Positions 5,888 through 41,600 of a DNA stretch of 64,000 nucleotides are shown here, piece after piece (position 1 is the first letter of the stretch; each line of letters starts with the position of its first letter). Below the pieces are notes generated by a model that was given only the letters and a program-made list of their open reading frames with translations, was not told where the DNA came from and ran no database searches. The stretch is from a virus, in the IMG/VR virus record IMGVR_UViG_3300045988_168162, positions 82,781 through 146,780 of that record. One strand, written 5' to 3'. Made by a program: the position numbers and the translations under genes.

Positions 5888-7410
5888 CAGATAAGGAACA
5901 GCGTCAGGTTGCCGTGATTTCCCCAGACGGCAAGCGTAATTATGTGCCGGTCTCGGAATTTATGAGCAAGCTGCGCTATGCAAACTTGTCCAACATTAAA
6001 GTAAGAGACCTGGAAAACAACAAAGATTACAACCCCACATATCGCAAATACACGAAATCACAGATCGTGACCTACCTGAGCAACCCGGCCAGCTATGAAA
6101 CGCAGCTGCGCCAGATGAGCCAGTACCTTTTTAATATATCGAACTATTACCGGCGGCTGATCCAGTATTTTGCTAGTATGAGTATGTTCAGCTACATTGT
6201 GGTGCCGTATGGTGTTGACTACTCCAAGAGCGTGAACGTAAACAAGTTTAAAAAGGGATATTACGGTGTCATTAGCCAGTTGGAACGTATGAATATCCGG
6301 CACGAGTTCTCGAAGGTATTGATGGTTGCATTCCGGGATGATGTGTATTACGGATATGCCTGGGAGACCAATGACAGTTATGCTTTACAGCAGTTGGACC
6401 CGGATTATTGTAAGATTTCCAGCATTGAAGATGGTGTTTACAATTTTGCGTTCAACTTTAGCTATTTTGATGCTAACAGCGAGCGGCTGCCGAATTTCCC
6501 GCCGGAATTTACCACGATGTATAACGCTTACCAGAAAGACACCAACCTGAAATGGCAGGAGCTTTCCAGTGAGAATTCTGTTTGCATTAAGATCAATGAG
6601 CAAACCTATGTGCCGATCCCGCCCTTTGTGAGTCTGTTTAGTGCATTGGCGGACATTGAAGACTACCGCGCTATCAGCAAAAATGCCAGCGAAGTGAACA
6701 ACTACAAAGCATTGGCGCTGGAAATCCCGGTTGATGATGAAGGTACTTTTTTGATCGACTATGATTTGTGCAAGGACTTCTACGATATGCTGTGCAACGT
6801 GTTGCCGGAAAATATCGGAGCCTTTATGAGCCCGATGAAAGTATCCAGCTGGGATTTTGAAAAGAGCGGTGCCGTGAGCGGTAGTGATGATGTTGAGAAG
6901 GCTGAAGCGTCCATGTGGACGCAAGCTGGCGTAAACAGCATCCTGTTTGGCGGCGGAGATAAGGACTCGGCCACCTCGGTCAAATGGTCCACCATCAACG
7001 ACCAGATGATCGTGTTTACTGTGATGCGGCAAATTGAACGCTGGATCAACCGCAAATTGAAGAGTGTTTCTACGGCATATAAGTTTAAGGTAAATATCTT
7101 AGATGTTACATATTTTAACCGTGACGAGATGCATGACCGCTATATTAAGGACGGCCAGTATGGATTGCCTGTCCGCGCTGCTATTATGGCGACCGGCGGC
7201 TATACGCCCAGTGATGTAGAAAACCTGATGTATTTGGAAAACACGATTTTGGACTTGAGTTCCAAGGAAGTGCCGCTGAAAAGCTCCAATACGCAGACTG
7301 TAGATAACGGTGACGGCGGACGGCCTACCAATGAGAGCCAGGGGAAAGACCTGAGCGATGCGGGGGCTGTCACACAGAAGAATGACTCCAACGCGAACTC
7401 GGAGGGCTAA
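5884..7410 (+). CDS. Portal protein
   Basis: 508 aa, start overlaps the terL stop. N-terminal YTKSQIVTYLSNP..LRQMSQYLFNISNYYRRLIQY is portal-like. Confidence 0.75.
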   Translation: MTDKEQRQVAVISPDGKRNYVPVSEFMSKLRYANLSNIKVRDLENNKDYNPTYRKYTKSQIVTYLSNPASYETQLRQMSQYLFNISNYYRRLIQYFASMSMFSYIVVPYGVDYSKSVNVNKFKKGYYGVISQLERMNIRHEFSKVLMVAFRDDVYYGYAWETNDSYALQQLDPDYCKISSIEDGVYNFAFNFSYFDANSERLPNFPPEFTTMYNAYQKDTNLKWQELSSENSVCIKINEQTYVPIPPFVSLFSALADIEDYRAISKNASEVNNYKALALEIPVDDEGTFLIDYDLCKDFYDMLCNVLPENIGAFMSPMKVSSWDFEKSGAVSGSDDVEKAEASMWTQAGVNSILFGGGDKDSATSVKWSTINDQMIVFTVMRQIERWINRKLKSVSTAYKFKVNILDVTYFNRDEMHDRYIKDGQYGLPVRAAIMATGGYTPSDVENLMYLENTILDLSSKEVPLKSSNTQTVDNGDGGRPTNESQGKDLSDAGAVTQKNDSNANSEG

Positions 7411-14314: not shown

Positions 14315-15049
14315 ATGGCTATGAATCCTAATATGGCTAACCGTGAGGTTATGAACCTGGTTCTGCTGGACTACAAGACCAAGGTCCCTTACATGAACAT
14401 TGACTTTGCTAATGTTTCTACCACCAACTTTACCGCCAACCGTGTGTACGCCAAGGGCGGCTGGGGTGCCCCTAACCGCGTTGGCTTTGACGGCGAGCGT
14501 ACCGGCACCCTGCAGATCGACACCCAGATCATGCCTGCCAAGCTGTTTGCGCTGCTTTCCGGCAAGGATATTGCCAAGACCGCCAAGGTCCTGAAGCGTG
14601 AGGAGCTGGCTGCCGGTGCTGACGGTCTGGAGCTGACCGAGGAGCCCAAGACCGGTACTGTCCAGGTGTTTGCTGCGTCTGACGATTGCGGCACCCCCAT
14701 TTCTGGCGTTACCGCTACCGGCAAGAAGGTTACTGCTACCGGCATTACCGAGAACCAGAACTACATTGTTTACTACTACCTGGACAAGACCACCGGTGTG
14801 CAGAGCATTAAGTTTGACGCAGACACCTTCCCGAAGGCTTTTGAGATCCGCGGCGAGATGCCCTTTAAGACCGAGGACGAAGAGGATGTTATGTGCGACC
14901 TGACCTACTACAAGGCTCAGCCGCAGGCCACCTTTAACCTGGCTTTCCAGAACACCGGTGATCCGACCACTGTGTCCATCACCTTTGACTGCTACGCCAA
15001 CCAGGATGGCGATATTTACGAGATGACTTTTGAGGACGGCACTGTCTGA
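14315..15049 (+). CDS. Major tail (tube) protein
   Basis: AAAGGAG SD, strongly biased codon use like the capsid gene, 244 aa, own terminator. No sheath gene is present. Confidence 0.65.
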   Translation: MAMNPNMANREVMNLVLLDYKTKVPYMNIDFANVSTTNFTANRVYAKGGWGAPNRVGFDGERTGTLQIDTQIMPAKLFALLSGKDIAKTAKVLKREELAAGADGLELTEEPKTGTVQVFAASDDCGTPISGVTATGKKVTATGITENQNYIVYYYLDKTTGVQSIKFDADTFPKAFEIRGEMPFKTEDEEDVMCDLTYYKAQPQATFNLAFQNTGDPTTVSITFDCYANQDGDIYEMTFEDGTV

Positions 15050-15075
15050 TCCTTGATTGACTGAACCTAGAAACA

Positions 15076-15100
15076 GGGGAGCTACGGCTCCCTTGTTTTT
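15076..15100 (+). terminator. Rho-independent terminator
   Basis: GGGGAGC-TACG-GCTCCCT hairpin followed by TGTTTTT. Confidence 0.7.
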
Positions 15101-15121
15101 AGATTTTAAGGAGATGAAAAC

Positions 15122-15424
15122 ATGGAAGAGATTAAGTTTGTGGAGACTACAGCAGCGGAACTGCCTGCCGCGCAGGTAAAGAAGCCGCGCAAGAAGGCGA
15201 AGCCGCAGGCTGAAGAGGTTGTTATGGAGACTATGCCGGAGACGCAAGTGCCGCCGATGCAGCAGGGGATTGTTGTTTACCGCAATGAGGCTACCGATGT
15301 ACTGGGTTTTGAGTGCGATGGCCATGGCTACCAGGTGCCAGGCGCAAAAGAACTGGGGTATAAGCTTGGCGACAATGTCGATTTTATGGTAGTTGATGGA
15401 AAGATCGTGTTTGGCATTGCGTAA
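15122..15424 (+). CDS. Hypothetical protein
   Basis: AAGGAG SD, 100 aa. Confidence 0.5.
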   Translation: MEEIKFVETTAAELPAAQVKKPRKKAKPQAEEVVMETMPETQVPPMQQGIVVYRNEATDVLGFECDGHGYQVPGAKELGYKLGDNVDFMVVDGKIVFGIA

Positions 15425-15815
15425 TAAGTACAAAGTTTCGGCAAAAGAGGACCGCACCTATGATGGGATTGTGTTTGACTCTAAGGCCGAGATGAAATAC
15501 TACCGGGATGTTGTGCTGCCCGGCGTTGCCAACGGGACGATTGTGGATTATCAGTTACAAAAGCCGTATGAGCTGCAGCCGAAATTTAAACATGACGGCA
15601 AAACCGTGCGAGCTATAACTTATGTATGTGATTTTTACCTGGTGTATGCAGATGGGCATACTGAGGTAATTGATATAAAAGGTATGGCGACTACGGAAGC
15701 ATTGCTGAAGCGAAAGCTGTTTATGTACAGATACCCGGATGAAAACTGTATATGGCTGGTGGAACGCAAGGCCGGTTGGATACGATATGAAGATTGCAAA
15801 AAGCGTAAAAAATAG
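15396..15815 (+). CDS. DUF1064-family PD-(D/E)XK-like nuclease
   Basis: KYKVSAKE..YDGIVFDSKAEMKYYRDV..ELQPKF..RAITYVCDF..VIDIKGMATTEALLKRKLF matches the DUF1064 pattern known from staphylococcal phages. Confidence 0.85.
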   Translation: MERSCLALRNKYKVSAKEDRTYDGIVFDSKAEMKYYRDVVLPGVANGTIVDYQLQKPYELQPKFKHDGKTVRAITYVCDFYLVYADGHTEVIDIKGMATTEALLKRKLFMYRYPDENCIWLVERKAGWIRYEDCKKRKK

Positions 15816-15825
15816 GGAGGCTTTT

Positions 15826-15864
15826 ATGACCAATAAAATTTTGCGGGGGGGGGTACTCCCTTAA
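15826..15864 (+). promoter_or_regulatory. Leader ORF L1 with G9 tract (15845-15853)
   Basis: GGGAGG SD 5 nt upstream. As sequenced it encodes MTNKILRGGVLP and stops at TAA 15862. Confidence 0.6.
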
Positions 15865-15906
15865 TGTAGTACCCGAAATGCACCTTACGAAAGTGGGGTG
15901 TTGGGT

Positions 15907-16239
15907 ATGAGTGTTGCGCTGATGAGTGCAGGCGGCGGTAGCGGAAGTATTACAAGAGTAGAGCTTGTAGATTTGTCATTTTCACGATATAGTGGTAGTT
16001 TTACTAAAACGGCAGATGTTTCTTCGTATAAAGGATACAAAAAATTCACTAATGATAATTTTGTTGTTATGACGACATCTGTATATATGGGTGATAGCGA
16101 CGCTTATGCAGGCAGCAGTTACAGTGTGTCTTACAATCAAGATACTGGAATTGTTACTTTTACTGTGAAGATAAATACGAACGCAAATGGCGGGTATCAT
16201 CAACATTCTGCTTCTGCCAAAGGATATTTATTTTACTAA
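15907..16239 (+). CDS. MSVALMG-family paralog P1
   Basis: N-terminus MSVALMSAGGGSGS. 110 aa. AT-rich relative to its flanks. Confidence 0.65.
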   Translation: MSVALMSAGGGSGSITRVELVDLSFSRYSGSFTKTADVSSYKGYKKFTNDNFVVMTTSVYMGDSDAYAGSSYSVSYNQDTGIVTFTVKINTNANGGYHQHSASAKGYLFY

Positions 16240-16258
16240 TTAAAACAAGGAGTTATTT

Positions 16259-16300
16259 ATGAATTACATGAATTTTGTCCGGGGGGGGGGTACTGTGTAA
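16259..16300 (+). promoter_or_regulatory. Leader ORF L2 with G10 tract (16281-16290)
   Basis: AAGGAG SD 6 nt upstream. As sequenced it encodes MNYMNFVRGGGTV and stops at TAA 16298. Confidence 0.6.
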
Positions 16301-16348
16301 ACCATAGTATCTCCGAAGCATCTCGTTTAGAAAGCGAGGTGCTGTGAT

Positions 16349-16792
16349 ATGGCATTAGCTTTGATGGGGCCTGGCGGTGGCGGAAGTAATAAAGAAATAT
16401 CAAAAATGAAGTCTACAAGACTATGGACGAACGCAAACTCTTTTAAGAATTTTGACGGAAACGGTATCAAAGGAGGCCCTGGCTCCACACCAAATATTCC
16501 ACTTTCAAATTTAACTGATTATGATGTACTCGCTATTGCGTGTAAATTATACACTAACAGTTCTAATGACAATCCATTTATTAACTATATTGGAGTAAAA
16601 GAACAAATTTTGAATGGGAAAAATGGTGGATTATTTATATTGTGTGGAGGAACTGGCGGATCTGCTGGCGTTTTTAGAAACGCGCGTCTTCTCTCTACTG
16701 GCCTTTGTGTTACGTGGGACACAGGATCACTGGACGGGGAACATGTATCTAATGATGGAGCAATTCCATTGTATGTAGATGGATTAAAGTAA
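16349..16792 (+). CDS. MSVALMG-family paralog P2
   Basis: N-terminus MALALMGPGGGGSN. The LWTNAN motif is shared with P4. Confidence 0.65.
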   Translation: MALALMGPGGGGSNKEISKMKSTRLWTNANSFKNFDGNGIKGGPGSTPNIPLSNLTDYDVLAIACKLYTNSSNDNPFINYIGVKEQILNGKNGGLFILCGGTGGSAGVFRNARLLSTGLCVTWDTGSLDGEHVSNDGAIPLYVDGLK

Positions 16793-16801
16793 GAGGTAAA
16801 T

Positions 16802-17221
16802 ATGAAAATCTATGATGAGATCACTAAAGAGGAGCTGACGGCTCCTGATGAAAGTAAAGGTTATCTGTATGATAGCCAGATTAAAACTGGCATGACTAAG
16901 GACGCCTATGAAGTTATGGTAGGAACTGTTACTGAGGATTGTCCGAATGGCTTGCGCCGTTTGATCCCCGGCCATGCTGTTTTTGAGGCTTGCCAGTTCT
17001 ACCATACATATACCGACGAGGAAATCAAGCGCATGGAAGAGCAGGCTGCTGCGGAGCAGGCTGCAAAAGACCGTGAGGCCAAGATTGCGATGATTGACTC
17101 GATTGATGCGCAGGTGACTTATACTGCCATGATGACGGATACGCTGATGGAAGAGACTGATAGCGGTGAAGGCTCCGGCAGTGATGGCGCGGCTGATTCT
17201 ACTGATAGCAAGGAGGCTTAA
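16802..17221 (+). CDS. Hypothetical protein occupying the XkdW position upstream of an XkdX-like gene
   Basis: AAGAGGT SD, MKIYDEITKEELTAPDESKGYLYD N-terminus, coiled acidic C-terminus. Confidence 0.4.
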   Translation: MKIYDEITKEELTAPDESKGYLYDSQIKTGMTKDAYEVMVGTVTEDCPNGLRRLIPGHAVFEACQFYHTYTDEEIKRMEEQAAAEQAAKDREAKIAMIDSIDAQVTYTAMMTDTLMEETDSGEGSGSDGAADSTDSKEA

Positions 17222-17223
17222 TT

Positions 17224-17352
17224 ATGTTTGAGAAAATTAAGCGTTGGTATCCGAAACTGTGGAACAAAACCATGGTGAAGAATGCTGTAAAGAAGGGTGT
17301 TATTACTCCTGAACAGTACAAGGAAATTGTTGGAGAGGAGTATAAAGCATGA
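17224..17352 (+). CDS. xkdX: XkdX-family small protein
   Basis: 42 aa, MFEKIKRWYPKLWNKTMVKNAVKKGVITPEQYKEIVGEEYKA. Not in the ORF track. Its TGA overlaps the ATG of P3. Confidence 0.7.
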   Translation: MFEKIKRWYPKLWNKTMVKNAVKKGVITPEQYKEIVGEEYKA

Positions 17353-17864
17353 GTGTTGCAATGATGGGGGCTGGCGGTATCGTAAACAATCGCGCTTCTC
17401 TAGTGCCTGCTATGACATCTAACAGTCAAAATGGTTATACAGTTTCTGCAAGTAATTACTATAATAATGATAGTAGCCTTTACCCAATTTGGCACGCTTT
17501 TGATGGCAACACCATTCGTGGTGGGTGGGCTGAACAAGCAAATGGTTCTACGCTATACGTCGGTGCCAGTAATAGAAACGTAGATGTTGATATTACATTT
17601 CCAAAAGAAGTATCCGTGCATGCTGTAAAAGTTATTGCATCAACCTATGAAGCTGGTGGTGTTCGACAGCCTGCAAGTGCCTCACTTTCCTATTGCAATA
17701 AATCCGGTTCATATATTTCAGTTAATATTAACCAAATAGCTGCCGGTAAATCTGGCACGACAGACGACTGTAATGGAGTCGAATATCCTAAAAGTAAAAA
17801 ATGGCGTGTCACTTTAGTAAGATTGGGTGAATATATTGGGTTAAATCAGATTCTTTTATTTTAA
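17349..17864 (+). CDS. MSVALMG-family paralog P3 with discoidin/galactose-binding-like domain
   Basis: N-terminus MSVAMMGAGG. The body reads SASNYYNNDSSLYPIWHAFDGNTIRGGW..VDVDITFPKEVSVHAVKV..KKWRVTLVR..IGLNQILLF, an F5/8-type-C-like pattern. Confidence 0.6.
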   Translation: MSVAMMGAGGIVNNRASLVPAMTSNSQNGYTVSASNYYNNDSSLYPIWHAFDGNTIRGGWAEQANGSTLYVGASNRNVDVDITFPKEVSVHAVKVIASTYEAGGVRQPASASLSYCNKSGSYISVNINQIAAGKSGTTDDCNGVEYPKSKKWRVTLVRLGEYIGLNQILLF

Positions 17865-17899
17865 ATGTTTATTATCGAATTTAATTGGAGGTATATTTT

Positions 17900-17992
17900 A
17901 TGATTAAGAATATTCTGCGGGGGGGGGGGTATAGTAATCTAAACTATACCTCTGATATGGATACTTGTGCCGGAAAGGCGGTGCGAGTATGA
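17900..17992 (+). promoter_or_regulatory. Leader ORF L3 with G11 tract (17919-17929)
   Basis: GGAGG SD 8 nt upstream. Encodes 30 aa, MIKNILRGGGYSNLNYTSDMDTCAGKAVRV. Its TGA overlaps ATG 17989 of P4. Confidence 0.6.
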
Positions 17993-18393
17993 GTGTTGCG
18001 TTGATGGGACCTGGTGGCGGCGACTCGAATTTTAAAAAGATGTTTAAAGATTTGTCGTTTTCAAGTGCCGAAAGGGTTCTGCTCTGGACAAATAGCAATC
18101 ACACAAATAATAACACAGGCAGTGTTACTGCCGATACTGGCTCTCAGCTTTATGCTGCTTATTGTATAACTGTAAAAGGGCACTCTTCTCTTAGTCCACA
18201 ATATGTAGCTGAATTTATTGCTATTCGTGGTGCATCTCATAATGCCGTTGGTGGAATTGATAGAAGCATTTGGCGTGGTGTTAAAATTGATGGTTCAAAC
18301 ATTACAATAGGAACACCATATGCTGGTGAAACAACGCACTGGGAGAGTACCATTGTGTACCAGATTTATGGCATCAAAGGAACAGAACTTTAA
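17989..18393 (+). CDS. MSVALMG-family paralog P4
   Basis: N-terminus MSVALMGPGGGDSN. Contains the LLWTNSN motif. 134 aa. Confidence 0.65.
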   Translation: MSVALMGPGGGDSNFKKMFKDLSFSSAERVLLWTNSNHTNNNTGSVTADTGSQLYAAYCITVKGHSSLSPQYVAEFIAIRGASHNAVGGIDRSIWRGVKIDGSNITIGTPYAGETTHWESTIVYQIYGIKGTEL

Positions 18394-18409
18394 TTAAATT
18401 ATGTTATAG

Positions 18410-18446
18410 CCTCGCACCTTGGATAGGTGCGGGGCGATTTTTTATT
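18410..18446 (+). terminator. Rho-independent terminator
   Basis: CCTCGCACC / GGTGCGGGG stem followed by CGATTTTTTATTTT. Confidence 0.7.
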
Positions 18447-18463
18447 TTAAAGGAGAATTTTGT

Positions 18464-18961
18464 ATGGAAATTAAGAAAAATATTACCGTGCAGGAGCGCG
18501 TGGATTTTGTGAATTTTGTTGTGGATACTTGCACGGTGGATAGCCGCTATGTACCGGCACTGTTTGATTTTGCCTGGCGTGCGGGCGTGGTGAAGTTTTT
18601 TGCACCGGAGGTTTGGGAGCACCTGGGCGGCCAGGATGATATTTGCGATTTTGTGTACAGCCGTGACGGCATTGAAATTGTAGAACACCCGGATATTGCC
18701 GAGGTCACCGCTGGCCTGTATGAAGCCTGCCAGGAAGAGATTAAGAACCGGCGCGAGGAATATATGGTGGTTTACCAGAGCGTGGCACACCCTGACCCGA
18801 TGGACCGTATTGCGGATGCCTTTGAAGAGATTGCAGGAGCCATGAAGGGGCTGAATGACCCGGACATGCTGGTGGAGATTGCCAAGAAGGCCGGGCTGGT
18901 AGGGAAGAAGGCTGCACCGGCTGGTAAGGCTGTACCGCTGGAGCTTGCTAAGAAGGAGTAA
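18464..18961 (+). CDS. Putative tail assembly chaperone
   Basis: AAAGGAG SD, acidic 165-aa protein upstream of the tape measure gene. Confidence 0.5.
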   Translation: MEIKKNITVQERVDFVNFVVDTCTVDSRYVPALFDFAWRAGVVKFFAPEVWEHLGGQDDICDFVYSRDGIEIVEHPDIAEVTAGLYEACQEEIKNRREEYMVVYQSVAHPDPMDRIADAFEEIAGAMKGLNDPDMLVEIAKKAGLVGKKAAPAGKAVPLELAKKE

Positions 18962-18964
18962 GAC

Positions 18965-19438
18965 ATGGCTACGGTAACAACGCTGAAAGGTTTAGAGCTT
19001 GAAATGCAGCGGCGCATTAACCGTGCCCTACGTGGAGAAGTTGCGAACGAAGTAGAGAAATGCGTGCAGAAACATGTGCAGCAGGATGTTTTAAGCAAAT
19101 ATGAGCCTGTTGCATATGAACGGCGTGGCGGTGGCGGCCTGGAAGGTGAGGCCAATATCAAAAGCGCTGTACGAGACAAAACTTTGACGGTTAAGGATGT
19201 GGCACAAATAGAGGGGCCAAGACTCCCTGGTTACTCGGCCAGTCATGCTTCTGACACTGAATTTTCCAAACTGATTGAAGGATATGGAAAAGGCGTTGCG
19301 AACCCGTGGGGTGGCAGGAATGGTGCGTGGACAAAACCGCGCCCATTTATGACAAATGCAAAAAAAGAGATTGTCCGTGAAAATAGTCAGGTTCATGGGC
19401 GGATTGTAAAAGCTATAAAAAAGCAATTTCCTGAATAA
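18965..19438 (+). CDS. Hypothetical tail-module protein
   Basis: AAGGAG SD, 157 aa. Weak resemblance to HK97 gp10-type proteins. Confidence 0.4.
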   Translation: MATVTTLKGLELEMQRRINRALRGEVANEVEKCVQKHVQQDVLSKYEPVAYERRGGGGLEGEANIKSAVRDKTLTVKDVAQIEGPRLPGYSASHASDTEFSKLIEGYGKGVANPWGGRNGAWTKPRPFMTNAKKEIVRENSQVHGRIVKAIKKQFPE

Positions 19439-19526
19439 ACGGCAGAGGCTTCGGCCTTTGTCTTGAGTGGTTAGTGATAAATAACCGTTGAAGAGAAAGG
19501 CCGAAAGCCATAAGGAGGATAAAATT

Positions 19527-22500
19527 ATGGCAGAAGATTTAAATATTAAGGTAAAGGTAACACCTGATACCAGTGGGGTACAGGGAGAGCTAAATGGACA
19601 GGCTGGTAGGTTTAATTTGCCAGTAAAAGTGTCACTGCAGAATGTTGCGGATATACAAACTCAAATTCAAAATATCGGCAAAAACATTGATGTTAAAGTT
19701 AATCTTACTATGGCACAGAACGGTGTAAAAAATCAACTAAATAGTTTAAAGAATCAAAAGGTTGATATGCAACTGTTCGACACCACGAAACTTACGCAGG
19801 AATTAAATAAAGTAAGCAGTGCTATTGAAAAAGCTGTCTCAAAGATTCAGATCGCTTTGTCTACAAAGATAGATTCTACAATGAAGGCAACTGCGAGCAA
19901 TGTCGAAAACCTCGGAAAATCTTTTGGCACTATTCAGACAAGAATAGATTCTATTAAAAATACTGGCGACAAGGCTAAAATGCAGGCCGGCCTCGATACT
20001 GCCAAGAAGAACTATAACAATCTTATTCAGCTTGGCACATTGACAACAGAACAATTTAGTGGGATGGCTACTCAGCTTGCTATGGTGAATCGCCAAGTTC
20101 TTGACATTGTTGCGTCTGAAAAGAAATTAGAAAATCAAGCAGCAAGAGTCGCCAAGATCAATATGCGTGGCGATGAACTTATTGATTCTTACAATCGTGG
20201 TAATGCAGATTTGAAAGATGTGTATGATGCGTCTGCTAAGAAATATAGAACAAAAGACGACAGAAACGCAAAACGCAGATTGGATCGACAGCAAAATAGG
20301 ATTAGCGGTCTCATTCAAAATTTCCAGAACAATCCTACGACAGAAAACTTTGATCTTCTATCTCATGAAATTACGATGTATGAGCGAAACAGCAATGATT
20401 TGCAGAGTACATTAAGAGCCGAAAAGAAAGAATGGGAAGATAACGAAAAAGCAAAACAGAATGCTGCAAAAGCTACTGCTGCCGTGGCAAAGAAGACGCA
20501 GGAAGCGCAACAAAAAGCAGAAGATGCACGAAAAAAGACTGCATCGAATTTGAATCAGCAATTTGCAAATTCTGATTTTTCTGATTCGCAAATTAAATAT
20601 TTCGCAGCAAAAAACAACGGTTATAGCACTGCAGATATGAAGCGGTACTTCGCAAGTACAGACAAATGGAACATTAAGCTCAAATCCGCGATTTCCGCAT
20701 TTAATAATGATCCTACTGAACAGAATCTTAAAAAGCTGACTACTACCTATAATGGATATATTACCGCCAAGAAAAAGTTGGATACTTCCTTGACTGAAGA
20801 AAAATCCAAATGGGAAAAGACAGCAGCCGGTATTAAAAAATCCGGGGAAGACCTTGGCAAAACATATTCGGCGCTTGAACAGAAAAAGGCAAAACTTGAT
20901 TCTACTTACACCAAAAAAGTAGAAGGAACACAATTTACAAATCAGGCCATTGAAGATCTTGCAAAAGGGCAAAATGGCACGACCAGTATTGCTACATTGT
21001 TTACTGATGCAGAGACCGCGAAAAAAGATTTTGAAAAAAATATGGACAGCGGTTCTCTTGCACGATATAAAGCTGCAATAGAAGCTTTGACGCAGGCGCT
21101 TGCCAAAATGGACGCAGAGCTTACTGTAGCCGCAAAAAGCTCTGACCAGTTCAATAGTCAAATGCGGGCAAAACAGAACAAATACTCCAGTGAGATGACC
21201 CGGCTTAGTCAGTCCGGCACTGATTTACAGGATCTTGCAATAAGAACTGGCCATGGAAACATGGTTAATAGCAACACGGCGGAAGGCGTACTTTGGGGAG
21301 AAGTTTCTGACGCCAGCAAAGAAGCAAGAACCGCAATGGCGGAGTTCGATCAAAAGCTTGACACAAACAGCCTTTTGAAGTACGAGCAGGCATTGCAGCA
21401 CCTAAAAGAGTTGCTATCTCAGTTCCGTGATGAACTGACGAAAACTATTACTGCTACTAATAAGATGGGCGATATTAAAGATACAAACGCCGCCCAAATG
21501 AGTGAATATCAGAAGAGTTTGCAGGAGCTTACCGCAAGATATAATACCGCTGTTGCAAGTAAACAGGCCAACGGTAAGGATATGGGCGGTTTGCTTGTCG
21601 GAACGGATTTAACTGCTATCAATGACGCTTACACTAAAGCAGATCAAGCCAAAGCGAATTTTGAGCGCGATATGAATCAGACTTCGCTGGCTGCCTACAA
21701 AACGGCCATGGCTGCTTTGGCGCAGGAAATTCGCAATCTGACTTCTGCTTTGGACTCTGCTGATAATTCTGCGGAGAAGGCATTTAGTTCGTTGCCAACA
21801 CAGATGAATGCTGTCGAAGGCACCCTCAAGACGTTAAATGATACATATCGTGCGCAGCAAAACCGCGGTAAAAGTGATGCTGGCGTAGAAAGCACAATTC
21901 AGCTTTATACTGATGTGCTTAAAGAGATGCGGCAGATAGAAGCTTCTGGCAGTAATGACTATTCTCAATTCACGGAAATGTTCAAGAAGTTTGATTCGCA
22001 ATTGCAAGCATCTGGCATTAACATCAATAACTTTACAGACTTCATGCGAGCCATGAATTCCGTGGCTACTCAGGCAAAAGTTTCTATTGGTGATCTTGGC
22101 AACGAATTCAAACAGCAACAGAGCATTGAGTCTTTGAATAAGCGCTTGAACAATCTACTGTATACCATGGAGCGCTATGTTGAGATCAATAAAAAGATCC
22201 AGGGCAATTCTGACGTAATGAACCAGTACAATAGTGTGAAATCTGATATTCAGAGTGCCTTGCGGAGTACAGATGGCGCATTTAAAGAAAGTACATTGTC
22301 TAAGGCTGCTGAAGGATTTTCGGCACTGAAAAAACAGGCGCAGGATCTTGAGCTTGAGGGTAAGACACTGAGCCAAGTATTCCAGAATCTGTTTGGCCAG
22401 CATTTTAGTACGATGGTCGCCATGGGTGCGCTGCATTTGATGCAGAATAGCTTACAGCAGGTTTATCAGAATGTCGTGGATATTGATACGGCTATGACGG

Positions 22501-23579
22501 AACTGAAGAAGGTTACGGATGAGACGAGCTCGACTTATTCTAAGTTTTTGAGTGACGCCGGTAACCAGGCCAAGGAGTTGGGCGCCAGTGTTAGCGATGT
22601 GGTTAGCGCGACTGCCGACTTTGCCCGGCTTGGATATAACTTACAGGATGCCAATGAGATTGCCGAGTCTGCCATTATGTTTAACCGTGTTGGCGACGGC
22701 GTTTCTGATGTTAATGAGGCCAGCGAAGATATTATTTCGGCTATGAAGGCTTTTAATATCGAGGCCGAAAACAGTCAGCAAATCGTTGACAAATACAACG
22801 AGGTAGGTAATAATTATGCCATCAGTTCGGCAGGTGTCGCGGACGCCTTGACTAGATCGGCCGCTGCACTGCATGCCGCCGGAAACGATATTAACCAATC
22901 TATTGGTATGATCGTAGCAGCCAATGATGTCGCCCAATCGCCCGAGCAGGTAGGAAATGCCTTAAAGGTACTTTCTTTACGTATTCGTGGAGCGACTACT
23001 GAACTTGAGGCCATGGGCGAAGATGCCGACGGAGCCGCGACCAGCACAGCAAAACTACAGGCTGAAATTAAGGCTTTGTCTGGCGTTAATATCATGAAGG
23101 ATCGGGATACATTCAAATCTACATACGAAATCTTGGATGAATTGGCTGATAAGTGGGATAGTCTAACTGACGTCTCCAAGGCCAGCATCCTGGAGGACCT
23201 TGCTGGCAAAAACCGCGCCAGTGTTGTAGCCGGTATGTTGGAAAACTGGGATGATGCCAAGAAAGCCATGGAGACAGCACAGAAAAGTGCAGGCAGCGCA
23301 GAAGCGGAGTTGGAGACAGCATTGGATTCCGTGCAGGGCAAGCTCTCTCAGTTCCAAGCTACTTTTCAATCTTTTTCCGAGACCGTCCTCGATTCTGATT
23401 TAGTTAAAGGTATTATTGATTTTGGTACAAGCGCACTAGATGCTGCAGATGGATTTACCAAATGGGCCGGAGTAATCCCGACCTTGACCGCAGCATTAAG
23501 TGCCTTTTTGTCGTTGTCTGGTACGAAGACTCAGGGCAGTATTCAGATGCTCGCTTACGCAGTAGGAATAGCTGCGTAG
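19527..23579 (+). CDS. Tape measure protein, N-terminal part with TP901-family core region
   Basis: AAGGAGG SD plus ATG 19527. Coiled-coil repeats are followed by the core ..AMTELKKVTDE..GASVSDVVSATADFARLGY..NEVGNNYAISSAGVADALTRSAAAL... It ends at TAG just as a hydrophobic segment begins. Confidence 0.85.
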   Translation: MAEDLNIKVKVTPDTSGVQGELNGQAGRFNLPVKVSLQNVADIQTQIQNIGKNIDVKVNLTMAQNGVKNQLNSLKNQKVDMQLFDTTKLTQELNKVSSAIEKAVSKIQIALSTKIDSTMKATASNVENLGKSFGTIQTRIDSIKNTGDKAKMQAGLDTAKKNYNNLIQLGTLTTEQFSGMATQLAMVNRQVLDIVASEKKLENQAARVAKINMRGDELIDSYNRGNADLKDVYDASAKKYRTKDDRNAKRRLDRQQNRISGLIQNFQNNPTTENFDLLSHEITMYERNSNDLQSTLRAEKKEWEDNEKAKQNAAKATAAVAKKTQEAQQKAEDARKKTASNLNQQFANSDFSDSQIKYFAAKNNGYSTADMKRYFASTDKWNIKLKSAISAFNNDPTEQNLKKLTTTYNGYITAKKKLDTSLTEEKSKWEKTAAGIKKSGEDLGKTYSALEQKKAKLDSTYTKKVEGTQFTNQAIEDLAKGQNGTTSIATLFTDAETAKKDFEKNMDSGSLARYKAAIEALTQALAKMDAELTVAAKSSDQFNSQMRAKQNKYSSEMTRLSQSGTDLQDLAIRTGHGNMVNSNTAEGVLWGEVSDASKEARTAMAEFDQKLDTNSLLKYEQALQHLKELLSQFRDELTKTITATNKMGDIKDTNAAQMSEYQKSLQELTARYNTAVASKQANGKDMGGLLVGTDLTAINDAYTKADQAKANFERDMNQTSLAAYKTAMAALAQEIRNLTSALDSADNSAEKAFSSLPTQMNAVEGTLKTLNDTYRAQQNRGKSDAGVESTIQLYTDVLKEMRQIEASGSNDYSQFTEMFKKFDSQLQASGININNFTDFMRAMNSVATQAKVSIGDLGNEFKQQQSIESLNKRLNNLLYTMERYVEINKKIQGNSDVMNQYNSVKSDIQSALRSTDGAFKESTLSKAAEGFSALKKQAQDLELEGKTLSQVFQNLFGQHFSTMVAMGALHLMQNSLQQVYQNVVDIDTAMTELKKVTDETSSTYSKFLSDAGNQAKELGASVSDVVSATADFARLGYNLQDANEIAESAIMFNRVGDGVSDVNEASEDIISAMKAFNIEAENSQQIVDKYNEVGNNYAISSAGVADALTRSAAALHAAGNDINQSIGMIVAANDVAQSPEQVGNALKVLSLRIRGATTELEAMGEDADGAATSTAKLQAEIKALSGVNIMKDRDTFKSTYEILDELADKWDSLTDVSKASILEDLAGKNRASVVAGMLENWDDAKKAMETAQKSAGSAEAELETALDSVQGKLSQFQATFQSFSETVLDSDLVKGIIDFGTSALDAADGFTKWAGVIPTLTAALSAFLSLSGTKTQGSIQMLAYAVGIAA

Positions 23580-27322: not shown

Positions 27323-27351
27323 ATTATATCACACTACTATCGTTGGAACAA
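27323..27351 (-). promoter_or_regulatory. Putative extended -10 promoter of the minus-strand operon
   Basis: On the minus strand: TTGTTC, 17-nt spacer, TGATATAAT. It overlaps the first codons of the 27343 ORF. Confidence 0.35.
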
Positions 27352-30300
27352 GTGATCTTGAATCTTTTGAATATGTTTGGTACTGGTAAGAATGTCAACA
27401 CTGGCAATACATATATGACATTCTTGGGTAAGGAAGCATTGACTGCTCGTGATGATGTTAAAGCCGTCATTAACGAAGTCGAAAAGCTAAAGAATGCTGC
27501 CGGCCAAAGTATCTCTATTAACGATACTGCTGGAATTTGGGGCGCGTTTTTGCTTGGAAAGAACAATCAGAATTATGACTTTTCAAAAAGCTTAGGCAAC
27601 GACATAATTGCTCTACGGGCATACCTGGATGACGTAACGAATAAGGGGATGTCTGCGGCGGATGCCTTAAATGATGTACAGGTATCTGTATCTGGTACAA
27701 CGGTTGAATTTGAAGATTTTGCTAAGAGTATAGACACTACAGGCATGCATTTTGACCAAGCGGCCTCTATTTATATTCCTGCATTTATAAAGCAACTGAC
27801 CAGTGCCGTCACAATTACAACGGTAATGAAGGGCGTCCTCAAAGGGCTTGTTGGCATTATTGGAAATCTTGCCGTTGCTGCCGTTGCATCTTTGGCTATG
27901 GGTGCATTGATAAAAGCTGCAGAAAAGGCTGGCGAAGTTCTTCATAATTTCAAAGATAATACTTTCGGAAAATCTCTTGAAGAACAAAAAGAGCAGATTG
28001 ACGAAATGGGGCAGGCACTGGACAATACGGCCAGCTCTATTGATTCCTACAAATCAAAAATTACAGACCTGAAAGATTCTATCGACAGTGGCACACTCAG
28101 TGAGCAGGAAGCTTATCAGGCACGCAAGGATCTGCTAGAAATACAGGATGAGCTGATTCAAAAATATCCTGAAGAAGCGTCTGGTATTGATCTGCTAAAT
28201 GGCAGTCTGGAAACACAACTCGACTTGTTAAATGGTATTACTGAGGCAAAAGCTCGTGCTTATCTCTCTGAAAATAATGATATAATTCAGAAATCTTATG
28301 AGGAGATGACAAAGCAGCGCACCTATAAATCTACCGGCTTTGATAATTATCTTGAAGCTGATAGCAATGACATGTCTGAAATCGAAAAGATTGCTCAGAA
28401 ATATGCGGACAAAGGACTGGCATTTGCTCAATATGGTTCTGAAAAGAATGGTAAGGCGCGTTACGATATTGAAGTGACTGCGGATGTTTCGCAGGCCAAA
28501 GATGCTATTGATGATTTTTATAACGACGTACAAAAAAGTAATCTTATAAGTGACGATGCAAAAGAAGCCTTATCTTCTCGTTTGTCGCAGTGGAGCAATG
28601 AAGCAAAAGGCATAGTTGACGAGTATGGTGATTACGCAAAACAAGCGGCCAAGTATGAAATTCAACTGAATGACACTTGGTCCAAGACTTACTCCGACCT
28701 TGAAGAAGCCCAGGAAACCTACAATGATGCCGTTGCCAAGAATGACGATAAGGCCATTGCGGCGGCACTGAAAAAGGTCAAGGCCGCTCAGGACGAATTT
28801 GCCAATACTGATATTGACAATAGCTTTGTGCAGCAGTATATGCAGGCGCAGGCGGATCAGTTGGACAGTGCTACGAAACTACAGGCTGTTCAGGCCGGAC
28901 TTTCTGAAACCTTTAAGGGTACCACCTCCAACTACAAGTCTCTGAATGATTATCTTGATGTTACAGATCACAAAGCTGAACAGCTTACCGACAGTATCAC
29001 TTATAATCTGAATGAACTTAAAGGTCTGGATGATATTGATATCCTTAACATTGGCAGCCTCGAAAAAGCAGGATCTGCATCTAAAAATTATACAGACGAA
29101 CAAATTGCCTCGTATAATCGTTTAAAAGGCGTAGCAGATCAGCTTGGCGTTTCCATGGATGACCTAATTGATATTTTTGTCAAGATTGGTCTCGTAACTA
29201 GCGACAATATCAAGTATACCAACGAGTTTACCAGCTCCGCGTTGACCATGGCAACTGCAGCTAGCAAGGCTATATCCAGTGTTACTTCTATCCTGAATTC
29301 GCAGGGAACTGGCGTTAATGTTGATGCCGATTCTTACAGCGAACTGATCAAGGATAATGCTGAATACGCGGCCGCACTGCAATACAGCAACGGCACCATG
29401 CAGCTGAACCGCGAGATGGCACAGCAGCTTACCGAAGCAAAAGTAAAAGAGTCTGAGGCTTATATCAAGGTGGCTTACAGCCAGAACCAGGTCAAGTATG
29501 AGAAGGTTAAGAATGACCTATCCTATTACACAGATGAAGTTCGTAAATCCATAGAAGCTGACGCAGACAAGTTGAAGCAGTTTGACGAAGAAAAGGCTGC
29601 ACTGGAAAGCCAGAGCCAAGCACTTCGTGACAATTGCCGTAGTTTGCAGATGCAGTACTCGGCTTTGATGCAGGCGAGTAGTGCCTACCAGGATTGGTTG
29701 AACGCACAGAATGCTACTGAATCCGGCGACATGTACGACAGCGCCATTGAAGCAAAGAAAGCTTTGGCCGAAGGACTGAAGAACGGCAAAATTGGCACGG
29801 TCAAGTGGCAGGCTGCTTCCGAGTTTTTGATCCCGGATGACTACGAGGGGACAGCTGCTGAATACATCAAGAAATTGAATCGCTACTTTAAGCAGGCCAG
29901 CGATGGTTCTGATGATGGTTCCGGCATCAACAACTTTATCACGGATAGCCTGAAGGCCGGGCTGATGAAGCAAGAGAGTGATGGCTCTATTAAGATCCTG
30001 GCAGACAAGACCACGGAAGATTTTGCAAAAGAGCTGAAACTTTCGCCAGATGCTGTGCAATCTATCTTTGGTGAGATGCAGGAGTATGGCTGGACCTTTG
30101 ACTGGGGCAGCATGCTTGGCGACCCAATCACTAACTATAAAATGCAGCTGGACGACATTAAAGACCAGATGGCAGACCTTGAGCCGGATAGTGAAGCGTG
30201 GCAGGTTCTGGATGCCAGGGCAGAAGAGTTAGAGAGTGCTCTGGATGGGCTGTACCAGCGCAGCGGACTTGACCAGCTTGCCGATACGGTACAGCAAGCG

Positions 30301-38624: not shown

Positions 38625-41600
38625 TTGGCAATATCCTTTGAAGAATCCAGAAAGAAATTTGAGAGCGCAATAGCGAACGAAGCTGCCGAACCGGCAATGC
38701 TTGCCTCCTTTGAGGAAGTAGAAGCAGTGGCAGCGGAACCTGTTATGCAGGCCGTTGTTGGAGACGATTTCACCCGCAGCGACAAATATAAATGGTATGA
38801 CCAGTATGAGGACAGTGCATACTCGACCATTGATAAGCTGAAAAACATCAAGATGGACGACAACCAGATCAACCTGACACAGGAAGATAACAGCCAGTTT
38901 ATCCCGTTTGAGATGCCGCGCTACTATGATGGCGTTGACCTGATGCAGATGCTGATCCAGGTACATTATGTTAACAAGGAAAACCAGGACGGCATTGCCA
39001 CGCCGGTAAATGTTACATACAGTGTGGACAAGATCCACTTTAACTGGTTGGTCGACAAGAACGTGACCAATGTTGAGGGTGAAGTCGATTTTGAAATCAC
39101 GGCTACCGGTTCTAACGAAAAGAACGAATCTTATCTGTGGAAGAGCCGCCCGAATGGCAAGCTGAATATTTTGAAGTCCTTGGCCGGCAATGGTGTGATT
39201 AAGCCGAGCGACGACTGGTACACCGGTTTTGTGCAGCTAATGGACGAGAAGGTTTCGGAAGCTACCAAACAGGCACAGGCTGCTGCCCAGAGTGCCACCG
39301 AGGCCAAGACGGCTGTTGCAAATGTGGACAGCAAGATTTCCAGCGCTGCTGCCGGTATCAAGCATGAGCTGCAGGCCGACCTGGATGCGAACTATGCCAA
39401 GAAAACAGAGCTTGACACGCTGAAAAACAAGGTGGATAACCTGAATGGCCTGGCCGATTTTGATGTGACCTTTAACAATGACACGAAGGAAATGACTTTC
39501 CTGAATGGCAGTGAGGAAATTAAAAAGGTCGCGATCGACACCAGCCCTTCCGCTGAATGGGTGACTGCTTACGGCAAGACAGTAGACAGCAAAGTTTCTG
39601 CCGCCGTTACGCCTGTGCAGACGGAGTTGACCGAGTACAAGACCGCCAATGACAAGGCTGTAAAGGATTTGCAGGACAGTGTTGGCAATCTGCCGGAGAC
39701 GCTGAAAACTTCTTATTATAATAAGGAAGCCACTGATAAGCTGCTGAAGGAAAAGGCGGATGCCTCTGTTATTGACGGTATTCGCAACGATGTTACGCAG
39801 GCAAAGAATAATGTAGCTGATATGCAGGGCACGGTGGACAGCCTGAATACTGCTGTTGGCGAAATTCAGGGCAAGCTGGATGACATTGGCAAGAATGCCG
39901 GGCATGAGTATGACATTACCTACGAGGACAGTAAACTGACACTTATGGAGGATGGCACGCCGAAGACGCAGGTGACGATTGTTGGCGGTGGTGGCGGTGG
40001 CCCTGCTGCGGGCAGCACGATTACGATCGAGCGTATCGGCGAGTCTGCAATTACGGCTGTTGCCGGTGACCCTGTTGTGGTCAAGTTCCGGTTCACGAGT
40101 GTGGACAGTGCGGGCGATGATACAGGCAATGCGACAGGCACATGGTATGTTGGCAATACAAAGGTTGCTACCCAGACCATTATGCAGGGCGAAAACAGCT
40201 TTGACATCACGAAGTATCTGCACAGCGGTGAGAACCAGATCCGTTTGACAGTTGTAGACAGCATGGATACGACAGGTTCCAAGAAGTGGAGTGCCAATGT
40301 CGTTGATTTCTATCTGGAATCCACCTTTGATGACAGCCTTTTCTATAGTGGCGAGGTCACGGTGCGCTATACACCGTATGGCAGCGTTGAGAAGAAGATT
40401 GATTTTGCGCTGGACGGTAAGTCGATTGGTGGCACGACTACCAGTGTGACTGGCCGACAGATGACCTATTCTATTCCTGTGCAGAAGCACGGCAGTCACC
40501 TGTTGGAAATCAGCATGACGGCGGAGATCAACAGCAAGACCGTTAAGTCCAATGTCATCAAGAAGGACATTATGTGGGTGGCTGAGGGCGAGACTGCACC
40601 CATTATCAGCTGTGCTGTGAGAGATTACGAGACGAAACAGTACAACAAGGTGTCCATTGAGTACACCGTATACGACCCTGCGTCCAGCACGAGCACTGTA
40701 AAGCTGGCTGTGGACGGCGTGACCGAGTCTACCCTGACTGTTGGGCGCACAAAGCAGATCTGGAGCTTTAAGAGCGCGAACAAGGGCAAGCATACGCTGA
40801 CGATCACTTGCGGCGAGACCGTAAAGACGATCAGTGTGAATGTGGTTGACCTTGGCGTTGTAATCGAGCCTGTTACTACGAACCTAGCCTTTGATTTTAA
40901 CCCAAGCGGTAAGACCAACGCCAGTGCAGACCGGCTTTGGACCGATGGCCAGACTAGCCTGAGTGTAAGCGATAACTTTGACTGGAGCAATGGCGGCTAC
41001 CAGATCGACAGTGACGGCGATACCTATTTCTGCGTAAAAGCGGGCACCAAAGCCACGATCGATTATAAGCTTTTTGCCGATGACGCGAAGAAACTTGGCA
41101 AGAACTTTAAGATGATTTTTAAGACCACCAACGTGCGGGACTATAATGCTACGGCGCTGACTTGCCTGAACGGTGGTATTGGCCTGAATGTGCAGGCCCA
41201 GAAAGTTGCACTGACCAGTGAGCAGAACAGTATTGAACTGCCCACATGCGAAGACGACTTTATGGAATTTGAGCTGAATATTCTGCCGGATAGCCAGTAC
41301 CGCGAGATGGTGCTGTGGCTGGATGGCATCCCATGCCGTGTACAGCTGTATGAATCCAGTGACAGCTTTACGCAGGCAAACCCGGTTGGCATCACGATTG
41401 GTTCTGACGATTGCGATGTGTTGATATATCGCATGAAGAGCTATATGATGAACCTGACTGACGATGAGATCCTGGACAACTTTATTGCAGACGCCAAGAA
41501 CGCTGACGAGATGATCGAGCGGTACAACCGCAACAACATCACGGATGCAAGCGGTGAGCTGAACCCGGACATTCTGGCGGAGCGCTGCCCCGACCTGCGT

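Follow-up and report, generated by a model that had tools for sequence, protein, structure and literature searches.

The stretch of DNA analysed here (the window: 64,000 nucleotides (nt), positions 82,781 to 146,780 of the IMG/VR virus record IMGVR_UViG_3300045988_168162) belongs to a temperate SPβ-like siphovirus of the human gut. Among its tail genes lie four small paralogous genes, P1 to P4, three of which (P1, P2 and P4) are preceded by a leader mini-open reading frame (ORF) that begins with a strong Shine–Dalgarno (SD) sequence and an ATG and contains a homopolymeric run of G. We refer to each leader with its paralog as a cassette (Table 1). Each tract begins 19–22 nt inside its mini-ORF and makes up codons 7–10. 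In a homopolymer census of the window, these G9, G10 and G11 runs were the only G runs of 7 or more, the next longest being a single G6, and every C run was shorter than 6; the three tracts thus stand as slippable homopolymers above the genome background. A first-pass annotation, made from the letters alone, had located the three tracts, the SD–ATG pairs at 15826, 16259 and 17900 and the position of the tracts within the leaders, and all of this was borne out by the sequence, as was its remark that the window holds no further G run of 9 or more.

Table 1 Features of the cassette array and adjoining genes, in window coordinates
Feature	Position	Strand	Details
Poly-G tract 1	15845-15853	+	G9; 7-10 G in relatives, ON frame in 2/21 contigs
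Poly-G tract 2	16281-16290	+	G10; 6-13 G in relatives, ON frame in 1/21 contigs
Poly-G tract 3 (cassette 4)	17919-17929	+	G11; 8-12 G in relatives, ON frame in 10/26 contigs
Leader 1	15815-15864	+	SD GGGAGG 15815-15820, ATG 15826, TAA 15862-15864; G9, OFF, 12 amino acids
Leader 2	16247-16300	+	SD AAGGAG 16247-16252, ATG 16259, TAA 16298-16300; G10, OFF, 13 amino acids
Leader 4	17887-17992	+	SD GGAGG 17887-17891, ATG 17900, TGA 17990-17992; G11, ON, 30 amino acids
Hairpin A1 (predicted)	15845-15862	+	G tract pairs with CUCCCUU; both OFF-frame stops inside or abutting
Hairpin B1 (predicted)	15869-15908	+	GUACCCG..GCACCUUAC / GUGGGGUGU UGGGUAU
Hairpin A2 (predicted)	16286-16314	+	12 bp; last tract Gs and UACUGUG pair with CAUAGUAUCUCC; both OFF-frame stops inside
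Hairpin B2 (predicted)	16317-16343	+	12 bp; 3′ arm AAGCGAGGUGCU contains P2 SD GAGGUG
Hairpin A4 (predicted)	17925-17953	+	11 bp; GGGGGUAUAGU pairs with ACUAUACCUCU; both OFF-frame stops inside
Hairpin B4 (predicted)	17961-17990	+	12 bp; AUACUUGUGCCG pairs with CGGUGCGAGUAU; spans -10 to +2 of P4 start
Paralog P1	15907-16239	+	110 amino acids; N-terminus MSVALMSAGGGSG
Paralog P2	16349-16792	+	147 amino acids; N-terminus MALALMGPGGGGS
Paralog P3	17349-17864	+	171 amino acids; tract-free
Paralog P4	17989-18393	+	134 amino acids; predicted 8-strand beta-sandwich, disordered N-terminus
139-amino-acid ORF	16802-17221	+	'XkdW-like' by position before XkdX alone; no family match
XkdX	17224-17352	+	Pfam PF09693
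Intrinsic-terminator-like hairpin	18409-18445	+	11 bp, 8 GC, T run; closes the inserted array

To follow the reading frames, we rebuilt each cassette in silico with 6–14 Gs. Tract lengths of n = 2 mod 3 gave a leader of 27–31 amino acids in all three cassettes. In this frame, leader 1 ends at a TGA (15908-15910) that overlaps the P1 ATG at 15907 (ATGA), leader 2 ends at a TGA (16345-16347) 1 nt ahead of the P2 ATG at 16349, and leader 4 ends at its TGA overlapping the P4 ATG at 17989 (ATGA). The other two frames run into a stop codon that ends 37–54 nt upstream of the paralog ATG (40–57 nt when counted from the first base of the stop), and no frame fused a leader to a paralog at any of the lengths tried. 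The series reproduced exactly the leader stops that the first-pass annotation had read by hand (12 amino acids, 13 amino acids and 30 codons), together with its further claims that n = 2 mod 3 opens cassettes 1 and 2 up to these TGA codons, that the remaining frames close early and that fusions do not arise. Because the coupling model set out below assigns n = 2 mod 3 as ON, the assembled window genome reads OFF, OFF, ON for cassettes 1, 2 and 4. In P3, which lacks a tract, the ATG overlaps the stop of XkdX (ATGA), and this paralog is therefore taken to be coupled constitutively, a use of the same junction that had been missed.

The pattern of tracts and frames is not due to chance, as indicated by both codon choice and the rarity of the frame layout in shuffled sequences. 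GGG accounts for 9.6% of glycine codons across 36 window genes, and none of the 31 codons in the nine glycine runs of ordinary window genes is GGG, whereas the glycine runs of the leaders consist of GGG entirely; the paralogs encode their own GGG(G) motif with GGC, GGT and GGA, not GGG. A layout in which one frame reaches the ATG and two stop at least 30 nt upstream arose per cassette in 5–13% of shuffles, which multiplies to about 5 × 10−4 over all three. As a separate observation, the leader-1 frame is open upstream to ATG codons at 15739 and 15787, overlapping the 3′ end of a DUF1064 gene in a different frame, and, because the DUF1064 stop (TAG, 15813-15815) abuts the leader-1 SD, leader 1 may also be fed by reinitiation.

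We then compared tract lengths, taken as assembly consensus, across the phage group, using about 30 independent contigs retrieved from Logan, ENA, JGI and IMG/VR by exact-protein look-ups and pattern scans. Across these near-identical gut-metagenome contigs the tracts ranged from 6 to 13 Gs, whereas the flanks were almost invariant over the 40 nt ahead of the tract and the 110 nt after it, so that length varies among otherwise identical sequences, as the first-pass annotation had proposed to check. It had also named interrupted tracts in close relatives as evidence that would speak against a switch; these proved rare (GGA followed by G8 in L006 and G7 followed by T in L023), and both retain the ON frame. 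At least six contigs begin or stop precisely at a tract (L001, L005, L006, L007, L049 and L053), and in sample ERR589771 one contig ends in G9 of tract 3 and the abutting contig begins with G11. Breaks of this kind are expected of a mixed population in a de Bruijn assembly, and loss of coverage at poly-G could contribute.

Each cassette is predicted to fold into two hairpins, A and B, with z scores of −3.0 to −5.4 relative to dinucleotide shuffles. In hairpin A, the last 4–7 Gs of the tract pair with a CUCC-like stretch, and the structure contains or abuts both OFF-frame stops. Hairpin B lies immediately 5′ of the paralog, and its 3′ arm bears SD-like purines and also includes some of the AUG in cassettes 1 and 4. 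Hairpin B1 (ΔG −20.9, z −5.4) would mask an SD-like GGGGUG together with the AU of the P1 AUG, with 11 of the 11 nt at −14 to −4 paired; for hairpin B2 (z −3.4) this count is 10 of 11, and the corresponding cassette in L048 has a different sequence with the same pairing. A search of positions 15000–19000 against Rfam 15 at E up to 1 gave no relevant match.

For a broader view of the junction, we took every distinct cassette from all fetched loci. In all leader-type cassettes with a correctly assigned paralog start, the OFF stops lie 40–69 nt upstream of the ATG and the ON stop lies −1 to +6 nt from it. The stop and start meet as ATGA in cassettes 1 and 4, across a 1-nt gap in cassette 2 and as UGAUG in a lineage with poly-C tracts (see below). 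A consensus across classes (MAFFT and RNAalifold) recovered hairpin A only, hairpin B being too different in sequence to align from class to class, and each class was therefore folded on its own. The 16 hairpin-B variants obtained, which include at least seven unrelated sequences, have z scores of −3.4 to −9.5 and 7–11 of the 11 nt at −14 to −4 paired. The stem of the 'd' class is ACCUC:GGAGGU with extensions that differ wholly between cassettes yet remain complementary. In the cassette-4 class (six variants), 100% of hairpin-B cells are paired, compared with 30–60% when the partners are slid, and the substitutions among relatives (six one-sided and one compensatory) keep the pairing. The downstream SD and AUG are thus predicted, less strongly for cassette 4 than for the others, to be sequestered in a structure that upstream translation would have to open, and hairpin B, which the first-pass annotation had not seen, supports a physical basis for the coupling model.

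We propose that DNA slippage sets the frame of the leader, that a single frame leads through hairpin B to the paralog start and that each cassette is a heritable, reversible ON/OFF switch, a reading that we consider likely to be correct. In this model, ribosomes would load at the strong SD of the mini-ORF and traverse the G tract, so that the number of Gs would set the frame. In two of the frames they would stop inside or next to hairpin A, 40–57 nt before the paralog ATG; a ribosome terminating there would miss the inner stem of hairpin B, which would remain closed and leave the paralog OFF. In the third frame (n = 2 mod 3), translation would continue for about 20 further codons, melt hairpin B and stop at AUGA or 1 nt before the start, turning the paralog ON. 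Slipped-strand mispairing during DNA replication would change n, so that a phage or lysogen population would be a mixture of ON and OFF states, with 2^3 combinations in the window and as many as 2^11 in related arrays. Given that the tract would set the frame and that only one frame would cross hairpin B, each cassette would switch independently. No promoter-like site was found ahead of the cassettes, with no σ70-like site on the + strand there, and the array is therefore probably part of the late tail transcript. The rate of switching, the dependence of expression on frame and the purpose of the device are features that we infer; for the purpose, we favour bet-hedging over which fibre-tip or decoration-like binding modules are made.

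The interpretation of the tracts as gates of coupled translation, first put forward in the first-pass annotation, gains support from the length variation in relatives, from the predicted hairpin B and from its recurrence elsewhere (see below). Several observations weigh against it. ON is rarer than the expected one third in cassettes 1 (2/21) and 2 (1/21), and the modal length of 9 is OFF almost everywhere; this rarity fits a locus that is OFF by default, and it also fits slippage at the RNA level or decay. Because the lengths are consensus values only and Illumina sequencing handles G homopolymers poorly, some length calls differing by ±1 and some contig breaks could be technical. Within-class covariation in hairpin B is weak, the one double change being matched or exceeded in 80 of 500 shuffles. 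In cassette 4, the purine stretch GGAAAGG lies in the hairpin loop and the SD window is 60% paired, and, by an accessibility score, P1 ranks lowest of 37 window genes and P2 and P4 are unremarkable. Finally, the fold matches of the P4 model (AlphaFold2, predicted local distance difference test (pLDDT) 69) are weak, and the function of the paralogs is one that we infer.

The three tracts are real, but the first-pass annotation drew their scope too narrowly, as they belong to a larger family of switched cassettes. Two SPβ-like relatives (L047 and L048) have four tracts, and in L047 the P3 homologue carries a G9 tract within its own N-terminal codons (MALALMGPSAGGG...) and is open only at n = 2 mod 3. 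In L043 (a 255-kb contig), L052 and L053, a head-fibre-like gene, a homologue of the 139-amino-acid ORF at 16802 and XkdX are followed by 9–11 small paralog genes. Every paralog in the arrays of L043 (3489-9100) and L052 (4038-8600) has a G8–G11 tract, and two layouts alternate. In the direct layout, the tract encodes the glycine run of the shared motif M-S-x-Q-F-M-x-P-..-G-G-G, and a body of 116–182 amino acids is open in one frame; in the leader layout, a mini-ORF resembling the paralog N-terminus is followed by the tract, hairpin A, hairpin B and a complete paralog. The consensus state is ON for 1 of 11 cassettes in L043 and 0 of 9 in L052, and all bodies are intact in the ON frame. Intact bodies behind OFF tracts are a classical signature of phase-variable genes, not of pseudogenes. 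Between L043 and contigs of the same family from different samples (L044–L046), individual tracts differ by one G (8 versus 9). A pattern scan of IMG/VR for d-type leaders gave no match.

A second, smaller lineage (L064–L070, contigs of 23–45 kb) carries a P4 homologue in its tail-tip module, two genes after a Sipho_Gp37 protein and just ahead of a homologue of the 16802 ORF. Upstream of this P4 homologue (about 6860–7010) lies a leader with a poly-C tract (C8–C11), of which only C9, which ends as UGAUG at the paralog start, is ON, the other lengths (C8, C10 and C11) being OFF; L064 and L065 carry a deletion of the tract that locks their leader in the ON (coupling) frame. The C tract of these contigs can pair with a GGGG SD-like stretch of the paralog. 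Given the poly-C leaders and the unrelated hairpins, the same logic therefore appears to be built from different sequences and a different homopolymer. A more general claim, in which gut Firmicutes-type phages of at least two lineages carry 3–11 independently switching cassettes for small beta-sandwich proteins with a shared, possibly virion-docking N-terminal motif, with a new type of leader gate and a tract that doubles as a recombination joint, is put forward tentatively, at somewhat less than even confidence; on this claim, the virions of each burst would be a combinatorial mixture with differing tip or decoration sets.

Several relatives bear on the role of the tract as a joint. In L020 (5661-5760), P1 is absent and a G7 tract links the left half of leader 1 with the right half of leader 2, which reflects either a tract-to-tract recombination deletion or an assembly collapse. 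The 5′ and 3′ halves of the leaders occur in at least seven combinations among the loci, with reassorted halves in L020 (A-b), L052 (B-a and E-c) and L048 (D-c). The first 30–40 nt of the paralogs are conserved and the bodies behind them differ between otherwise near-identical phages, the proteins in the cassette-2 slot being 123, 147, 163, 166 or 175 amino acids long. The reassortment of halves and the swapping of bodies thus make the switch and the gene it controls exchangeable modules, and this exchangeability may be an advantage of the leader layout over a tract within the ORF.

We weighed four other explanations of the locus. In the first, which is the main rival, the tracts would act at the RNA level: transcriptional and/or ribosomal slippage on GGG would give each genotype a fixed ON minority, which the DNA length would only tune. 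This would accommodate a modal G9 that is one step off the ON length in both leader classes (8 in the c-type and 10 in the d-type), the mostly OFF consensus of L043 and L052 with bodies that are nevertheless intact, and a hairpin that begins within the tract. However, length variation at the DNA level is plainly present, hairpin A lies 0–3 nt past the slippery codons instead of the 5–9 nt typical of stimulators of −1 frameshifting, direct-type cassettes have no hairpin A and a fusion product arises in no frame. RNA polymerase slippage, moreover, is best documented on A/T runs, G:C hybrids realigning less readily. We therefore regard slippage at the RNA level as an unlikely basis for the locus.

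It is improbable, too, that the leaders are relics, that is, decayed N-termini that remained after new cassettes had recombined in downstream of the start of an older phase-variable gene, with the paralogs using their own SD and the tract being a neutral hotspot. The leaders do resemble paralog N-termini (in L052, MSNQFMTPLSFRGGGG is followed by a cassette-4-type tail), each paralog has an SD-like purine stretch of its own and the accessibility of P2 and P4 is not extreme. A relic would nonetheless lose the tract, the strong leader SD and the stop–start overlap, all of which are kept in every relative across several divergent classes; hairpin B is maintained through sequence turnover, glycine runs elsewhere avoid GGG completely and the locked-ON deletion in L064 and L065 keeps the exact coupling frame. 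That the tracts and their conserved flanks exist only as crossover points, with no part in the control of expression, we consider very improbable: the G7 joint that deletes P1 in L020, the reassortment of leader halves at the tract and the exchange of bodies behind a conserved 5′ end would follow, but the SD and ATG, the frame-specific reach, hairpin B and the length polymorphism would be left unexplained, and recombination is more readily understood as an additional property of this element. A sequencing or assembly artefact is scarcely credible, for although poly-G is error-prone on Illumina instruments and several contigs break at tracts, the same three positions are affected across dozens of samples, assemblers and archives, with lengths of 6–13, perfectly conserved flanks and a coherent coding layout.

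Three known devices were also considered and rejected. A programmed ribosomal frameshift of the tail-chaperone G/GT type does not match tracts whose length is not fixed and leaders that no frame fuses to a paralog. A phase-variable promoter spacer is opposed by the lack of a σ70-like site on the + strand and by hand-measured spacings to −10-like hexamers of 20–24 nt, which are too long. An invertible segment or shufflon does not fit cassettes that are co-directional, with only two weak inverted pairs (75–79% complementary) that are unrelated to the cassette borders.

With regard to what is switched, P1–P4 have in common only an N-terminal motif, M(S/A)(V/L)A(L/M)M(G/S)(A/P)GG, and scattered positions. 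No Pfam or PHROG family matched P1, P2 or P4, and P3 has a weak match to a PHROG tail protein; for P3, a profile search of the PDB was empty and the AlphaFold2 model (pLDDT 51) was too poor for a fold search. The best PDB match of the P4 model is to the C-terminal domains of the receptor-binding protein gp144 of phage K (E 0.04, template-modelling score 0.43–0.45), and among its weak matches in BFVD, proteins annotated as tail fibre or BppU are over-represented. When 1.84 billion representatives were searched with a profile, only 18 clusters were retrieved; one of these, at E 8 × 10−4 (marginal), is a protein of 363 amino acids whose N-terminus is PHROG virion-structural and whose C-terminus is P4-like. 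Metagenomic homologues of P4 are 54–99% identical to it. The paralog genes are located in tail or fibre gene contexts, and homologues of the 16802 ORF adjoin paralog cassettes in other contexts too. Taken together, the fold matches, the profile search and the gene contexts suggest that the paralogs could be small virion-displayed binding modules, with the shared N-terminal motif perhaps serving as a common docking peptide, a reading for and against which the chances seem to us about evenly balanced. A non-structural role, for example in exclusion or anti-defence, would be an alternative. Three P4 homologues (P0007, P0009 and P0010) have a 35-amino-acid N-terminal insertion (..ATATAADVASGKTFYAGDKTIKTGT..) with no PHROG match, which resembles motifs in clostridial phage fibre proteins.

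The neighbouring genes belong to SPβ-type Pfam families (YonD, YonB, YomW, YomV, the YomU tube protein and YomN) and are followed by the tape measure protein; the window further encodes a GH25+M23 endolysin and, on the minus strand at 56165-57319, a Tn916-type tyrosine integrase. The SPβ-type Yom/Yon families, the endolysin and the integrase together point to a Gram-positive host. P4 has an identical counterpart, DAD70202.1, in the human-metagenome assembly 'Siphoviridae sp. ct3o911'. Among 50,697 deposited phage genomes, blastn with positions 15300–18500 found no match, nor did tblastn with P4 and the 139-amino-acid ORF against deposited phage genomes, and neither the tube protein nor the P4 profile found a match in 185,579 GTDB species genomes.

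The cassettes lie between the tube gene and the DUF1064 nuclease-like gene (15393-15815) on one side and a chaperone-like gene at 18464 on the other. In IMG/VR relatives whose tube protein is 81–91% identical (L025–L042), the chaperone-like gene comes immediately after the DUF1064 gene, and tracts of this kind are absent. Because these slightly more distant phages run straight from one gene to the other, the 2.6-kb block at about 15816–18445 is an insertion; its GC content is 0.39–0.42, compared with 0.47–0.52 in the flanks. The strong terminator-like hairpin that closes the array lies within the tail operon, with P4 on one side of it and the chaperone-like and tape-measure genes on the other, so that downstream tail genes would have to be transcribed past it. 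The DUF1064 gene, which PHROG describes as a Holliday-junction-resolvase-like nuclease, lies in the middle of the tail module and directly upstream of the recombining array; it also occurs in cassette-free relatives.

Further variation lies downstream. The tape measure region (19488-23579) is highly polymorphic among near-identical phages (in comparisons with L002, L012 and L017): the protein is 1363 amino acids long in the window and 1046 or 1879 in other relatives, and some have a tape measure of 880 amino acids with separate ORFs of 312 (zf-FCS/TRASH, faint) and 202 amino acids. In L004 and L018 (10552-12663), leader 4 (G10) is intact, P4 is cut after 24 codons and a shortened tape measure of 653 amino acids follows, a junction that represents either a large deletion or a misassembly. 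Two giant ORFs beyond the tape measure, at 27343-33138 (1931 amino acids) and 38625-45458 (2277 amino acids, with a C-terminal DUF6273 domain), are presumably the main tail-tip or fibre proteins.

Elements of the proposed gate are familiar from other systems. In the coupling of the MS2 coat gene to the lysis and replicase genes, and at the ermC leader peptide, upstream translation melts a hairpin that hides a downstream SD and AUG. The cassettes resemble these in a hairpin predicted to mask the ribosome-binding site (RBS) and in a stop–start overlap of the AUGA or UGAUG type, but there the trigger is constitutive translation or an antibiotic-stalled ribosome, whereas here it would be a heritable, stochastic change of frame. 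The invertible tail-fibre segments of Mu (Gin) and P1 (Cin) and the diversity-generating retroelement of Bordetella phage diversify host-recognition proteins within a population; they are functional analogues with a different mechanism, as no inverted repeats flank the cassettes and all are co-directional.

The closest parallel in a phage is found in Campylobacter phages, for which accounts in PMC12823448 and PMC10877375 of the work of Sorensen et al. (2021, Cell Rep 35:109214) describe hypermutable polyG tracts in receptor-binding genes. Going by those accounts, the two systems have in common a G homopolymer of variable length in a phage and several tracts per genome; slippage there yields mixed progeny with differing host-recognition-type proteins, as is proposed here; in the Campylobacter phages, the tract lies inside the controlled gene, and these are lytic myoviruses of a Gram-negative host without mismatch repair. 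In the window, by contrast, the tracts are in separate leader mini-ORFs, with stop–start coupling and a predicted RBS-masking hairpin, in a temperate SPβ-like siphovirus; tracts inside the regulated gene are absent from the window and occur as the direct layout in related arrays. No sequence homology to the Campylobacter phage polyG system was found.

Bacterial contingency loci with 5′ coding homopolymers, known in Neisseria, Haemophilus, Campylobacter and Helicobacter (PMC11868660), are similar in slipped-strand mispairing, an ON state in one of three frames, tracts of 7–13 and intact OFF bodies. They control genes for surface-exposed variable proteins, as the paralogs may be, and the repeat in these classical loci is within the regulated ORF or a promoter spacer, whereas in the window it is in a separate leader ORF; the text of PMC11868660 contains no mention of translational coupling, a leader peptide or an upstream ORF. 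Contingency loci in T2 and T4, with reversible frameshifts at short repeats and proposed bet-hedging (Gomez, Barrick and Waters 2025, bioRxiv 10.1101/2025.10.21.683753), likewise involve reversible frameshifts at repeats in phage genes. Those repeats are short (6 bases or more) and lie within ORFs such as agt and rIIA; they were under-represented in tail-fibre-type genes in that survey, which described neither a leader-coupling device nor cassette arrays. In Helicobacter pylori tlpB, a variable G-repeat in the mRNA leader is targeted by the small RNA (sRNA) RepG (PMC8295292), and in both systems the mRNA leader contains a G homopolymer of variable length for which there is a C/U-rich pairing partner, with expression that depends, or here would depend, on repeat length. 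The tlpB repeat is untranslated, its partner is a trans-acting sRNA and expression is graded with length, whereas the tracts of the window are translated, have a partner in cis (hairpin A) and are predicted to act with a period of three.

The first-pass annotation knew of no such layout in a Gram-positive siphovirus, and in the literature that we searched no account turned up of a gene gated through coupling by a homopolymer inside a leader ORF, although an absence from the papers covered is not proof. What would be new here is the combination of phase variation with MS2-type coupling or ermC-type leader logic: a frame-dependent leader with an RBS-masking hairpin would be a previously undescribed phase-variable translational gate.

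Tract-based diversification has so far been documented mainly for Campylobacter phages and recently for T-even phages. If our reading is correct, tract length offers temperate gut phages an inexpensive means, both heritable and reversible, of varying what they display, and leader coupling adds a mechanism to the phase-variation repertoire in which the switch is kept while the gene is exchanged. Loci of this type break short-read assemblies and are annotated as scattered hypothetical ORFs or pseudogenes, and with them the host-range phenotypes of such phages would be unstable.

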